This document shows positions 19,673 through 25,093 of a stretch of DNA of 64,000 bases, one piece after another. The notes under the pieces are model-generated. The model was not told where the DNA came from and ran no database searches. It worked only from the letters and a program-made list of their open reading frames with translations. Each line of letters starts with the position of its first letter. The stretch's first letter is position 1. The DNA is from Escherichia phage NHEP29. The stretch lies in the sequence record PQ511150.1; one strand, 5' to 3'. The translations under genes and the position numbers were made by a program.

Positions 19673-19898
19673 CTCGGTCCCATGATTTGGCCATTAATTC
19701 GGACATAAATTCTTCAATGCGCGTTTCTTTAGATGGACTTTCACTATTAGAGACCGCAAGTTTGTAATCTGCAATAGGACAGAACATATCAAGGTCCATA
19801 TTAAGGTCGTCTTTGATTTTTTCTTCTGACACATCTTTATCGTATGTGTACAGATAACTATCACATGATTCTGATTTAATGTAAATTGCTATACTCAT
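19662..19898 (-). CDS. Hypothetical acidic protein
   Basis: ATG 19898 in ATGA overlap with upstream stop; AGGAA SD. Confidence 0.5.
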   Translation of the reverse strand: MSIAIYIKSESCDSYLYTYDKDVSEEKIKDDLNMDLDMFCPIADYKLAVSNSESPSKETRIEEFMSELMAKSWDRDDE

Positions 19899-20386
19899 CT
19901 CAAATTCCTGCATTCGGTAATAAAACGTTCAACTTCATTATTCTTGGCTTTTATCTTGTCTTTATGTTCCTGTAAACTACTTTTAATAAGATTAATAATG
20001 ATGGCTGCAGTACCGCCGCCAATGATGCCACCAACAACACTTATGATACTAGATGCTAATAAGATAGCAATAATATCAACAAAACCGAAAGAACTCACCT
20101 TAGTACTGAAAAACCATATAGATGGTACAAATATAATCCATCCTGTTATCCATTGGCACTTATTGAAAAACTTTTCAAGCTCAGCTTGAGTTGTTCGTAT
20201 TACTTCATCGATAGGTTGATATCCATTAATGTATCTGTTCACGATAATACCTGCCGGCTGGTCGATTTTAAATTCTTGGCAAATACGTTTCACTAAGTAG
20301 GATGGACATCCTGTCCAATCTACTGAATAGTATGAAATACCTTCATTGCCATCGTCTATATTAGACCAATATGTTTTGTTAATCAT
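19895..20386 (-). CDS. Membrane protein, FIxECR C-terminal family
   Basis: 163 aa, 2 TM helices, C-terminus ERFITECRNLR. Confidence 0.6.
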   Translation of the reverse strand: MINKTYWSNIDDGNEGISYYSVDWTGCPSYLVKRICQEFKIDQPAGIIVNRYINGYQPIDEVIRTTQAELEKFFNKCQWITGWIIFVPSIWFFSTKVSSFGFVDIIAILLASSIISVVGGIIGGGTAAIIINLIKSSLQEHKDKIKAKNNEVERFITECRNLR

Positions 20387-21072
20387 TACCAGCCTTCCAT
20401 AGGGAATTCCAGATAAACTTGAGCATTGACACGAATTTCATTGGTAATCTTTTTAACTCGGTCTGTATTACGAGATACACGTCCGAACCAACGCCATCCA
20501 TTACTAATTGCACGAGAACCAGTGTGCCATGTTTGCCAATCAAACTGAAGAAGAGTACGATCTGGAGCTTCCCATTTCTCTAGTTCACCTTTTTCAATTT
20601 TTTCGAGGACTTCTTTGTGCCACTGACGATAGATAAGTTCGCCATCAGGAATCTGACTGAACTCTGCAGTTCCTGTTGCAAAATGAGTAGGACACACGTC
20701 AGCGTTAACAAGACCAAGAATATGTTCAGACAAATAGCGAGGATTGTCATAATCAGGTTGTCCTGCAGTAATAAAGTGTTGACCAACTGGAATATCAGGG
20801 CGCGGTACGTCATCATGGTGATATCCAGGAATAGCAGGATACCAACCAGGCATCAGCATGTGGACTCGTGAATCAAATACAACCTGGTCGGTGTTCCAAT
20901 CATCTGGCAAGTTCATGATGAAGCTGCGAGTAATAGGACCACCATTATTATAAGCAAATTCTAAACTACAGTTGAAGAACATAGGCTCGTTTTTAATCTG
21001 GTCATTTTTAATCGCGTGAGCAAAACCACCTACTGCACGAGCTTGACTATTAAACACTTTAGAACTATTCAT
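20386..21072 (-). CDS. Hypothetical protein, possible 2OG-Fe(II) oxygenase fold
   Basis: 228 aa with HHD about 97 residues before WHTG and RVS 14 residues after, matching HxD...H...RxS spacing. Confidence 0.55.
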   Translation of the reverse strand: MNSSKVFNSQARAVGGFAHAIKNDQIKNEPMFFNCSLEFAYNNGGPITRSFIMNLPDDWNTDQVVFDSRVHMLMPGWYPAIPGYHHDDVPRPDIPVGQHFITAGQPDYDNPRYLSEHILGLVNADVCPTHFATGTAEFSQIPDGELIYRQWHKEVLEKIEKGELEKWEAPDRTLLQFDWQTWHTGSRAISNGWRWFGRVSRNTDRVKKITNEIRVNAQVYLEFPMEGW

Positions 21073-21073
21073 A

Positions 21074-21379
21074 TTATTTTCCTCGACATTCTTTAATGAA
21101 ATTTTCTAGATTGGTAGATTCAATAGCTTTTTTACGAGCTTCTGCGTGTTCTTCTTCGGACAATTTACGTTTATAATTGACCCAGACATTATGGTCGAAA
21201 CCAGACGTGGCATATAATAACAAAGCTCCAACGAATAGCAAAAACGGCGATAAGAATACAAAACCAGGAACACCATCCATATCGTAAGCCTTTTGTAATA
21301 CTGCAACAGAAAGGGTTGCGTAAAAAGGCGATGCAAGTATTGTTAAAAGACCGATTCGATTGGTTTCTGTTAATTTCAT
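21074..21379 (-). CDS. Membrane protein, FIxECR C-terminal family
   Basis: 101 aa, 2 TM helices, C-terminus ENFIKECRGK. Confidence 0.6.
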   Translation of the reverse strand: MKLTETNRIGLLTILASPFYATLSVAVLQKAYDMDGVPGFVFLSPFLLFVGALLLYATSGFDHNVWVNYKRKLSEEEHAEARKKAIESTNLENFIKECRGK

Positions 21380-21395
21380 AATATTCTCCTCAAGT

Positions 21396-21434
21396 TGATA
21401 GGACTACTATAACATGGCCCTATCAGTTTGTACA
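21396..21434 (-). promoter_or_regulatory. PeSL-like early promoter
   Basis: TGTACA, 17 nt, TATAGT, AGTCCTATCAAC. Confidence 0.55.
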
Positions 21435-21435
21435 C

Positions 21436-23003: not shown

Positions 23004-23201
23004 TTAGCAAGAATAACTAGATGATACCCAGCCTTGAACAGTAATACTATTATTTGATAACGAGATTGCGTTCTGGAGATTCAGACCTGCGTTATCTTCA
23101 ATCCATAATGTAACTTCTTCGCGTTCTTCTGTTGCAATTTGGAACAGGTTTTCCAGAGCAGCTACTGCCGTACGTACAGCACAATCTAATTCACGAGACA
23201 T
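23004..23201 (-). CDS. Small protein, GW(V/I)SSSxxC C-terminal family, member 3
   Basis: 65 aa ending QGWVSSSYSC. Confidence 0.6.
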   Translation of the reverse strand: MSRELDCAVRTAVAALENLFQIATEEREEVTLWIEDNAGLNLQNAISLSNNSITVQGWVSSSYSC

Positions 23202-23210
23202 ATGATTTCC

Positions 23211-23483
23211 TTAGCAAGTGTGAGAAGATGCAATCCAACCACCAGTTTCGAGGCTCAGGTTGTAGTCGTATTGGTAAACGTCGGCCCATTCAGCATAGCC
23301 GTTTTTTGTACAACGTTCAAGATCGGCTTTAAGATGTCCGGGTGAATGATAGGTTCCACCCATACCATAAGCTGGATACAAGTTGAATGTTGTGTTTTGT
23401 TTATCAGCAATTTCTTTGGCAGCCTCAATAGCTGCATAGATTTTTGCTACAGCTTCAGCCAGTTCGGTTTGTTCTTTAGACAT
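23211..23483 (-). CDS. Small protein, GW(V/I)SSSxxC C-terminal family, member 2
   Basis: 90 aa ending GGWIASSHTC; shares YGxGxTYxxPG motif with member 1. Confidence 0.6.
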   Translation of the reverse strand: MSKEQTELAEAVAKIYAAIEAAKEIADKQNTTFNLYPAYGMGGTYHSPGHLKADLERCTKNGYAEWADVYQYDYNLSLETGGWIASSHTC

Positions 23484-23492
23484 AATGATTCC

Positions 23493-23798
23493 TTAGCACA
23501 ACGCAGAAGACGAAACCCAAGCACCTTCAGTAATAACGTAACCATTACCTTCACGCTTAACATCGCCACCATTATTTTCAATTTCATCTTTCATCCACTG
23601 GGATACGATTTCACCCTTAGGATAATAAGTACGTCCGCTACCATAATCACCTACAGAAAATGATACGGCATATTGGTCTGCGATCTTTGTTGCTTCTTCT
23701 TCGATACGTTCAGCTTGATTCAGAAGTTTATAAATTGCATCTGAAGCGGATTTGGCATCGTTAAACTCTGGTACTTTAATTTCAATAATCTTACTCAT
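23493..23798 (-). CDS. Small protein, GW(V/I)SSSxxC C-terminal family, member 1
   Basis: 101 aa ending GAWVSSSALC. Confidence 0.6.
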   Translation of the reverse strand: MSKIIEIKVPEFNDAKSASDAIYKLLNQAERIEEEATKIADQYAVSFSVGDYGSGRTYYPKGEIVSQWMKDEIENNGGDVKREGNGYVITEGAWVSSSALC

Positions 23799-24154
23799 TT
23801 TCTACATTCCTTAATAAAGTTTTCGATTGTTTCATTTTCACGTTTAGCTAGAAGTTCATTATAACTAATCATTTGAGAAGCGTAAACCTTTTTATTTTTC
23901 TTGTTATGGTTTATAAAATCATAGTAAAAATAGACTACAGTGCAAAATGATGCGATGGATGCAAAGGCCTGTGTATACCGTAAGTCCTGCCATTGGTCTG
24001 TGAATCCACCAGTGTTCCCTATAAATCCTAACACAACGCCGTCAATAAGAAATCCAACTAATCCAAAGGCAAATCCCATGCCGGCACTCATGATAAAAAT
24101 TAGAATGTTCTCACCAAGAGAAGGCCATACGGTTAAGAGTTGAGGCTTTTGCAT
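23795..24154 (-). CDS. Membrane protein, FIxECR C-terminal family
   Basis: 119 aa, 2-3 TM helices, C-terminus ENFIKECRK. Confidence 0.6.
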   Translation of the reverse strand: MQKPQLLTVWPSLGENILIFIMSAGMGFAFGLVGFLIDGVVLGFIGNTGGFTDQWQDLRYTQAFASIASFCTVVYFYYDFINHNKKNKKVYASQMISYNELLAKRENETIENFIKECRK

Positions 24155-24528
24155 CTTATTTCCTTAACGAATTCCATAGCTTCTTCATATTCATACTTTT
24201 TAACAGCTTCATCATACTGAGCTTGGGCTTTTGCGCACTGAACTTTCCATTCTCTTAATCTGGCTCTGTGATGGCGGCCTTGGTGCCAATATCCTGCCCA
24301 ATTAATAGGCATTAATAAAAACGGTACAATAAGTGGTGCGACGAACATTAATGAAAACGCTGCATCAGACGATATAACTTTATTGGAATCTAAAATAGCT
24401 CCTATAATCATAAAGATTAAAAATGCTAAAGCTAAAATAGGGCCAAATAGTATTTCGTTTGGGATTAATTTACGTTTGTATTCGTATGCCCAGGGTTTAA
24501 TTGGCATGTACAGGGTTGGCTTTGACAT
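24133..24528 (-). CDS. Membrane protein (related C-terminus EFVKEIRCK)
   Basis: ATG 24528; 2 TM helices; overlaps both neighbours. Confidence 0.55.
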   Translation of the reverse strand: MSKPTLYMPIKPWAYEYKRKLIPNEILFGPILALAFLIFMIIGAILDSNKVISSDAAFSLMFVAPLIVPFLLMPINWAGYWHQGRHHRARLREWKVQCAKAQAQYDEAVKKYEYEEAMEFVKEIRCKSLNS

Positions 24529-25093
24529 ATTCTCTACATTCCATAATAAATTGCTCAAGGATTAAATTGTTAGTGAAATTAGGACTAACAACCATGGTTT
24601 CATAAAGCGCATCAATAGCACTTAAAGCATCAACTCTTTTAAGCAAGGGCTTGCCTTCATACATAGTTTCAGAATCGACGATTAACGTAAAGTAATATTT
24701 TTTATTATCGACTAGAACTTCTGTGTCAATATAAAACATATTAGACCTCAGAAGCTTATCTCTAAAACCGTAATAATCTTCTGAACGTTCACTGATATAT
24801 TCCCATTCAGTGTTTAAACAACAAACAGACCATGTAGGAGCGACGAAATCAGTGAATCTAATATCATGGTCTGCAACTAGTTTAGCAATAGCTCCGATAT
24901 CATGAATCATAATACCTGGGGCTAATAAAGATTTTCGGTTATTTGCATATTCAGTTGTCTCATAAGAAGACGACCAGTACCATTTACGTCCAGTTGCAAC
25001 ATATCGTAATGAATCAACTAAAGACGTAGGTGGATTTACCTTATTTCGGAACTCTTCGAACATTGAGTCAATATCATTATTTTGGTTTCGCAT
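24497..25093 (-). CDS. Hypothetical protein with FIMECRE near the C-terminus
   Basis: ATG 25093 with AAGGAG SD; ORF-track extension rejected. Confidence 0.55.
   Translation of the reverse strand: MRNQNNDIDSMFEEFRNKVNPPTSLVDSLRYVATGRKWYWSSSYETTEYANNRKSLLAPGIMIHDIGAIAKLVADHDIRFTDFVAPTWSVCCLNTEWEYISERSEDYYGFRDKLLRSNMFYIDTEVLVDNKKYYFTLIVDSETMYEGKPLLKRVDALSAIDALYETMVVSPNFTNNLILEQFIMECREYVKANPVHAN

Follow-up and report, generated by a model that had tools for sequence, protein, structure and literature searches.

Introduction

Why should proteins that differ in almost everything else end in the same short peptide, and is that peptide kept for its own sake or as the by-product of a ribosome-binding site written over it? 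The question is raised by a block of minus-strand genes in Escherichia phage NHEP29 (PQ511150.1), of which a stretch of 64,000 nucleotides, called the window here, was analysed. In this block, four genes (e.5, e.3, RB69ORF133c and e.2) end in E-x-F-I-x-E-C-R and a fifth (e.4) ends in a shifted variant. An earlier reading of the letters, referred to below as the original prediction, had offered two explanations, namely a paralogous family of small membrane proteins with two transmembrane (TM) segments, or a recurring gene-junction module that leaves a peptide footprint. The analysis presented here points elsewhere. The peptide [FYW]-[IV]-x-x-C-R is selected at the amino-acid level, the Shine-Dalgarno (SD) sequence of the next gene is a real constraint that overlaps it, and the tail probably serves as a tag for docking in the cytoplasm, carried by the members of a rapidly evolving array around e.6.

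The window is 96-98% identical to Mosigvirus (RB69-like T-even) phages, and all genes of the region lie on the minus strand. Gene names were assigned through homology and synteny with the annotated RB69 and T4 records. The e.6 gene lies upstream of the array, whereas a 78-aa open reading frame (ORF) and nudE lie downstream of it.

A recurrent C-terminal peptide

All five ORFs were recovered on the minus strand with the coordinates and C-termini first ascribed to them, comprising the shared ends ERFITECR, ENFIKECR and FIMECRE as well as the shifted e.4 form (Table 1). Their recurrence is not a matter of chance. A degenerate back-translated pattern, GARNNNTTYATHNNNGARTGYMG, has four matches in the window, exactly at the four motif sites, against 0.00 expected from 100 dinucleotide-preserving shuffles, and a six-frame search with the regular expression F[IVLM].EC[RK] adds no other site in the 64 kb, each of the four lying within 11 residues of a stop codon. 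In one complete Mosigvirus and one complete Tequatrovirus genome, the motif is limited to e.5, e.3, e.2, ORF133c and the e.4 variant, and no copy falls outside the block from e.6 to nudE. The consensus reads hydrophobic-x-x-[F/Y/W]-[I/V]-x-x-Cys-Arg-(basic or Gly) and is placed at or near the C-terminus. A literature search found no description of this motif and nothing relevant on e.3, e.4 or e.5.

Searches of large collections added little. A pattern scan of IMG/VR for TTYATTNNNGAATGTAGA gave at least 120 stretches, almost all of them in short non-coding frames, and was uninformative. Protein searches by word index, with the tail alignment and with e.2, found only fragments or relatives at least 80% identical. 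The e.5 locus search yielded six IMG/VR loci, and GenBank phage records were used for the comparison instead.

Selection on the peptide

The codons of 30 copies from six genera were tabulated. The first position is aromatic in every copy (F 25, Y 3, W 2) and the second is I (18) or V (12), for which five codons are used. Cys occupies the fifth position in 23 copies (TGT 14, TGC 9), while the sixth is Arg in 28 (AGA 10, CGA 5, CGT 5, AGG 4, CGC 2, CGG 2) and Lys in the other two. The inner positions vary, K (17) and E (17) being most frequent there. Within the window, the synonymous differences TTT/TTC and AGA/CGA/AGG that had been pointed out are real, and TGT/TGC and GAA/GAG can be added to them. 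Since the copies between them employ every one of the six Arg codons and either Cys codon, the [FYW]-[IV]-x-x-C-R peptide is selected as an amino-acid sequence, and it remains conserved after the positions constrained by the SD are set aside.

Overlap with the ribosome-binding site

The SD of each downstream gene had been placed within the E-C-R codons. This is correct with one amendment. At each of the five window junctions, the strongest pairing with the anti-SD involves codons of the motif, with duplex energies of -3.3 to -6.1 kcal/mol and the SD ending at -4 to -8 (n=5); the sites are complementary to the 16S 3' end, lie inside the upstream ORF and have the spacing expected of an SD (4-10 nt before the downstream start). 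The register, however, differs from gene to gene, at least three registers being in use. In e.3 and e.4 the SD is formed by the K-E codons before the Cys (AAGGAA), in e.2 by R-N (AGG-AAT) and in ORF133c by R-G (CGA-GGA, giving GAGGA), and e.5 has a weak site. At each of the five junctions, the next gene starts between 1 nt before and 10 nt past the last base of the Arg codon. The ATGA overlap, described as frequent, is present at two of them; at two more the genes share 22 and 32 nt, and at the last a 1-nt gap separates them.

When the relatives are included, 28 junctions were scored, and 24 of them have an SD overlapping the motif. Four copies, those of the 184-aa protein of Gaprivervirus, the 234- and 211-aa proteins of Karamvirus and the 196-aa protein of Jiaodavirus, have their SD 14-31 nt further downstream. 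The e.2 homologue of MY742 takes its SD from AAA-GGA (K-G), which is another register, and in a metagenomic copy the motif is followed by 11 residues to the protein end and then by 30 nt of intergenic DNA. No RNA structure was detected at the junctions, whose folding is not more stable than that of shuffled controls (z -0.3 to +1.6).

With such variation in register, and with four copies in which the SD is separate from the motif, an SD plus a start codon does not suffice to account for the conserved element. The SD is thus a real overlapping constraint and not the source of the motif, and the initiation region overlaps the motif because the genes are packed end to start. This overlap biases the variable positions and the choice of codons (K-E as AAG GAA; Arg as AGG or CGA-GG), and its pressure is visible solely in synonymous Arg choice and in purine-rich neighbours.

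Carrier proteins and their topology

Two hydrophobic segments are present in e.2, e.3, e.4 and ORF133c and none in e.5, so that the description of a small 2-TM family holds for four of the five proteins and fails for e.5, which is soluble. The C-terminal segments contain 8-11 K and R residues against 0-1 in the loop between the TM segments, and by the positive-inside rule this asymmetry places the tails of the 2-TM carriers in the cytoplasm. The layout of two TM segments with a cytoplasmic helical tail is seen in e.2, e.3, e.4 and ORF133c but not in e.5 or in several carriers from other genera.

The five proteins fall into five different PHROGs, and none of them matches a Pfam model of the local library. 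Pairwise similarity among them, as seen by blastp, does not extend beyond the final 9-28 residues. Once the tails had been masked, the same program gave no significant cross-similarity and recovered only true orthologues between genera, at 28-47% identity, and hhalign gave e.3 and e.4 a probability of 8.5%. The e.5 protein and the proteins at the e.5 position in Karamvirus and Gaprivervirus scored 1.4% and 0.3% by hhalign, yet they have the same tail. The sole cross-match is a weak one of ORF133c to the e.2 PHROG, phrog_2203 (E = 0.0037), over the TM segments and with the tail included. Additionally, e.3 and e.4 have in common an M-[SQ]-K-P-x-L N-terminus, the same 2-TM-plus-helical-tail layout and similar lengths. 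Both likenesses hint at paralogy but fall short of significance. Alignment outside the C-terminal residues, which had been put forward as the means of recognising true paralogy, shows essentially no similarity, and the proposed paralogous family of 2-TM membrane proteins is not borne out by five PHROGs, a soluble member and bodies that do not match.

Occurrence across phage lineages

Tails of the same kind are found in several related lineages. In Tequatrovirus they are EKFVKECREYVKA... in e.5, MKFVKESRCK... in e.4, EEFVSDCRKIK-stop in e.3 and NNFITECRKLK-stop in full-length e.2. Gaprivervirus has FIAECR, FIKEVR, FIKECK and FIEECR; Karamvirus has FVDQCR, FIKNVR, FIKQCR and FIKGCR, and also FVEICR, FVKEVR and FIIGCR; Jiaodavirus has FIKYCR, FVKEVR, WIRSCR and WIKEMK. 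Six genes after e.6 in Gualtarvirus Rgz1, with one tail-less gene among them, end in YIKHCR, YIKQCR, FVDKCR, FVDECR (twice) and YVKHCR, whereas in Bragavirus the tails YIEKCR, YVESCR, YINQCR and YIMQCR stand on both sides of e.6. Further copies occur in Yersinia phage fHe-Yen9-01, a Serratia phage (MF036690) and a metagenomic contig. Outside the window, the carriers include both positional counterparts and extra genes, among them additional unrelated proteins, and they are soluble, 1-TM and 2-TM proteins. RB69ORF133c itself is limited to Mosigvirus (149 records, at least 88% identity).

Linkage to e.6

Motif genes stand beside e.6 in every e.6-bearing lineage examined (11 phages or contigs), while the Slopekvirus and Pseudotevenvirus loci have neither e.6 nor motif genes. 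The e.6 homologues of Rgz1 and Bragavirus were recognised by hhalign (99.7%) and tblastn (E = 2.5e-19), respectively. The family is small and restricted to phages, with 45 representatives among 1.84 billion proteins searched with HMMER.

An AlphaFold2 (AF2) model of e.6, with a predicted local distance difference test score (pLDDT) of 75, consists of an N-terminal helix and a long hairpin. Foldseek searches with this model gave nine Vipp1 structures and one CdvB2 among the top ten, with a best E value of 5e-4, and PspA at rank 20. At the level of sequence, e.6 and ten divergent family members matched neither PspA_IM30 (PF04012) nor Snf7 nor any other Pfam model, hhalign of e.6 with Escherichia coli PspA gave 0.5% (the PspA query sequence being approximate), and the e.6 profile compared with PDB sequences gave Vipp1 matches that were colinear but below threshold (E of 1-2). 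Moreover, the tail carriers matched none of the PspB, PspC and LiaI models, and a literature search found nothing relevant on phage-encoded PspA or on a link between e.6 and PspA. As the sequence-level tests are negative, the Vipp1/PspA-like appearance of e.6 is treated as a lead from a predicted structure and not as membership.

Recombination between tails

The tails of Tequatrovirus e.3 and e.2 are nearly identical (GAT TGC AGG AAA ATT AAA TGA against GAA TGC AGG AAA TTA AAA TGA). In contig L128, a hybrid tail, ...DCRKLK-stop, is joined straight to nudE and e.2 is gone, and the same single-piece junction of e.3 with the e.2 tail is present in Yersinia phage PST, RB33 and vB_EcoM_G4498. Loss of a whole ORF by recombination between tail copies is therefore observed, e.2 having been removed exactly by a crossover between the e.3 and e.2 tails. 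The repeated tails of 20-25 nt are recombination substrates that delete whole genes. Two further rearrangements, an internal deletion of e.3 in the Mosigvirus contig L123 (about 6958-7057) and an annotated e.3/e.4 chimera in phage OLB35 (P0009), have end-points away from the motif and were thus not counted as tail recombination.

In the T4 reference (AF158101.6; 7001-7490 of the locus used), two frameshifts (-1/+1) that other Tequatroviruses lack interrupt e.2, and the split gene still encodes the FITECRKLK tail. The annotated start of T4 nudE, MQEIKM, is the ATG inside GAA-TGC (Glu-Cys) of this residual e.2 tail, and an older T4 record has a 146-aa ORF here, which is as long as nudE would be if it began at MKTLSAG. 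The sharing of nucleotides and the coding repeats result in annotation artefacts, namely a truncated T4 e.2 and an extended nudE start.

Possible explanations of the shared tail

We hold with moderate confidence that the tail is a protein-level C-terminal motif by which the products of the rapidly evolving genes around e.6 dock in the cytoplasm. All members of the array would attach to a single shared partner on the inner side of the membrane, and the most likely partner would be e.6, a helical-hairpin protein resembling membrane-binding scaffolds. It is the best candidate because of its strict co-occurrence with the tails, its adjacency to them and its likeness to scaffolds that use small membrane partners. 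Local duplication and fusion, together with an exchange of cassettes at the tails, may have built up the array. Several points weigh against this explanation. The codon table was built in part from copies located by a regular expression that itself fixes the permitted residues, although the codon diversity within fixed residues and the copies located by orthology (e.2, e.3 and e.5 across genera) remain informative. Tails of the e.4 type have I, S or V in place of Cys at the canonical position. The link to e.6 consists of adjacency and co-occurrence in related phages, which share ancestry, so that the e.6-bearing lineages are not independent samples. Orthologues are already so divergent between genera (28-38% identity) that ancient paralogy of the 2-TM bodies is possible, and the AF2 model of e.2, made from a shallow alignment, has a pLDDT of 35 and is unusable. 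Furthermore, amphipathicity of the tail is significant in one of the five copies, and an amphipathic-helix reading of the tails was dropped. A broader version of the docking-tag explanation, which we consider speculative and rather unlikely, is that the genes form an unrecognised membrane module of T-even phages, in which e.6 would be a Vipp1/PspA-like scaffold and changing membrane or soluble adaptors would plug in through [FYW]-[IV]-x-x-Cys-Arg and be swapped by recombination at the tags. Such a module could steer membrane protection or remodelling to different sites or host insults.

Among the rival explanations, an ordinary paralogous family is unlikely. An ancestral 2-TM gene would have been duplicated in tandem and pieces of it fused to neighbours, the tail being merely the slowest-evolving segment, kept for the folding or self-association of each protein with no shared partner. 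The tandem arrangement, the likeness of e.3 and e.4 in N-terminus, layout and length, the weak match of ORF133c to the e.2 PHROG and the two clearly duplicated soluble carriers of Rgz1 are all as such a history would have it, but the same tail is found on soluble proteins (e.5, Kar_99, Gap_184 and the 158- and 173-aa proteins of Rgz1), masking the tails leaves no detectable similarity, and a structural role alone leaves unexplained why just six residues survived on differing bodies. Far less probable is the junction module, in which the downstream initiation region (an A/U-rich enhancer with the SD) is conserved and the peptide is its footprint. It is suggested by the frequency with which the SD lies over the motif, by the pairs K-E, R-G, R-K and K-G that spell AAGGAA, GAGGA, AGGAAA and AAGGA, by the e.3 start codon included in the Cys codon of the e.4 tail, and by the unstructured junction RNAs expected of open initiation regions. 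Nevertheless, the SD register slides by up to 9 nt against an invariant peptide, the four distant SD sequences and the one 30-nt gap separate the two elements altogether, F, Y and W interchange while every Arg and Cys codon occurs, and the F and I/V codons lie outside any SD, all of which speak against this half of the original prediction.

Selection for recombination itself, with the repeats kept for modular gene gain and loss as a coding analogue of PeSL cassettes, is very improbable too. Several isolates have lost e.2 precisely at TGCAGGAAA, which is common to the e.3 and e.2 tails, a second ENFIKECR copy closes the Mosigvirus-specific block between e.3 and e.2, and PeSL cassettes provide a precedent (PMC2839356); however, nucleotide identity between the copies is low (15-18 nt, with synonymous differences) and amino-acid identity is high, which is the opposite of the expectation under selection for homology, and any repeat is expected to recombine as a by-product. 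A capsid-targeting or prohead-protease signal is hardly credible. The F-I-x-E of the tail is like the internal-protein leader MKTYQEFIAE and the gp21 site I/L-x-E, the window also contains ORFs that resemble internal proteins and begin with MKTYQEFITEA leaders, and internal proteins are a precedent for diverse bodies with one short terminal signal (PMC3012670). This interpretation was rejected, as the motif stands at the C-terminus and its carriers are mainly integral membrane proteins, 13 of the 30 copies have no Glu at the fourth position, the leader has no counterpart of the invariant Cys-Arg, and chance would by itself produce F-I-x-E many times in a proteome.

The genes e.2-e.6 are conserved in hundreds of sequenced T4-like phages, T4 included, and the tag offers a testable handle on the block. 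The locus is moreover a natural example of a peptide signal and a downstream ribosome-binding site occupying the same nucleotides, neither of them a by-product, and of short coding repeats that can drive gene loss in hyperplastic regions of phage genomes.

Other features of the block

Table 1. Positions of the array genes, their tails and neighbouring features in the window
Feature	Position	Strand	Description
e.6 homologue	25142-25735	-	197 aa, all-helical hairpin protein heading the array; proposed tail partner
e.5 homologue	24497-25093	-	soluble, 198 aa; phrog_2607; C-terminus ...LEQFIMECREYVKANPVHAN-stop
e.5 motif	24533-24550	-	L-E-Q-F-I-M-E-C-R; stop 11 residues on; e.4 start 4 nt on
e.4 homologue	24133-24528	-	2 TM, 131 aa; phrog_2604; C-terminus ...MEFVKEIRCKSLNS-stop
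e.4 variant tail	24154-24171	-	M-E-F-V-K-E-I-R-C-K; contains SD AAGGAA and e.3 start codon
e.3 homologue	23795-24154	-	2 TM, 119 aa; phrog_2330
e.3 tail	23801-23818	-	I-E-N-F-I-K-E-C-R-K-stop; ATGA overlap; next gene start 23798
RB69ORF133c homologue	21074-21379	-	2 TM, 101 aa; phrog_9798
ORF133c tail	21083-21100	-	L-E-N-F-I-K-E-C-R-G-K-stop; R-G codons supply SD GAGGA
e.2 homologue	19895-20386	-	N-terminal domain and 2 TM, 163 aa; phrog_2203; C-terminus ...VERFITECRNLR-stop
e.2 tail	19907-19924	-	V-E-R-F-I-T-E-C-R-N-L-R-stop; R-N codons supply SD AGGAA; ATGA overlap, next gene start 19898
Promoter-like site	25777-25805	-	TTTACA-17-TATAAT, 11/12 matches; upstream of e.6
G+C-rich hairpin	25116-25133		between e.6 and e.5
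PeSL-like promoter in inverted repeat	21406-21434	-	directly upstream of ORF133c
Further PeSL-like cassettes	21675-21703 and 22970-22998	-	similar to 21406-21434 (cf. PMC2839356)
phrog_899 paralogues	23004-23798	-	three in tandem, 65, 90 and 101 aa
79-aa ORF	22702-22941	-	ends ...EYNIACREI-stop
ORFs with internal-protein-type leaders	17308-17610, 17674-17934, 18413-18709, 26736-27362	-	flank the block

The hairpin between e.6 and e.5 has a counterpart at the same position in T4 (AF158101.6, about 5655-5680 of the locus used), and, as a partial terminator or by stabilising the RNA, it may determine how strongly e.6 is expressed relative to the genes after it. The PeSL-like cassettes contain the hexamers T[GT]TACA-17-TATAGT or TACTAT inside inverted repeats such as GATAGG...CCTATC, and their presence is consistent with a shuffling of cassettes in the block that is specific to Mosigvirus and separates e.3 from e.2.

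The phrog_899 paralogues provide the block with another C-terminal motif that recurs, as all of them end in W-[VI]-[SA]-S-S-x-x-Cys-stop, each followed by the near-identical junction TGCTAAGGAA(A)TCAT(T)ATG. The family, with its ...SSS..C-stop end, also occurs in Gaprivervirus, Karamvirus, and Yersinia and Serratia phages. The 79-aa ORF has a Karamvirus counterpart ending in ...YNTYCYEI-stop; its own Cys-Arg lies near the end and does not fit the tail motif. The F-I-x-E likeness between the leaders of the flanking internal-protein-type ORFs and the first half of the tail motif is judged coincidental.

Comparison with known systems

The capsid-targeting sequence (CTS) of T-even internal proteins resembles the tail in that diverse accessory proteins, encoded in the same hypervariable part of the genome, carry one short terminal address tag (PMC3012670). 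It differs in being N-terminal, with the consensus MKTYQEFIAE, and in being cleaved by gp21 and sending proteins into the prohead, whereas tails of the e.2-e.5 type are C-terminal, have a Cys-Arg core and are carried mostly by membrane proteins. The conserved ends of internal-protein genes are also said to flank cassette exchange (reportedly Repoila et al. 1994).

PeSL cassettes are likewise short repeats at gene boundaries of hyperplastic regions, where recombination adds or removes ORFs (PMC2839356, PMC4122927). They are, however, intergenic, consist of an early promoter with a hairpin and are conserved at the nucleotide level; the tail repeat is part of coding sequence, is conserved in its amino acids and contains neither promoter nor hairpin, the promoter-like hexamers lying elsewhere.

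PspA and Vipp1, of the ESCRT-III superfamily, offer, for e.6 as modelled, the parallel of a helical-hairpin scaffold encoded beside small membrane proteins with cytoplasmic interaction segments (PMC11237479). Unlike them, e.6 has no PF04012 match and its neighbours have no PspB, PspC or LiaI matches. Translationally coupled genes share with the array the placement of the downstream SD in the last codons of the upstream gene, seen at five of five junctions, with ATGA at two. Such coupling accounts for codons rich in purines near the motif and behind it, but not for the conserved F, I/V, Cys and Arg. The closest architectural precedent for the tail is thus the CTS and the closest genomic precedent the PeSL cassettes, and the motif lacks the defining features of both.

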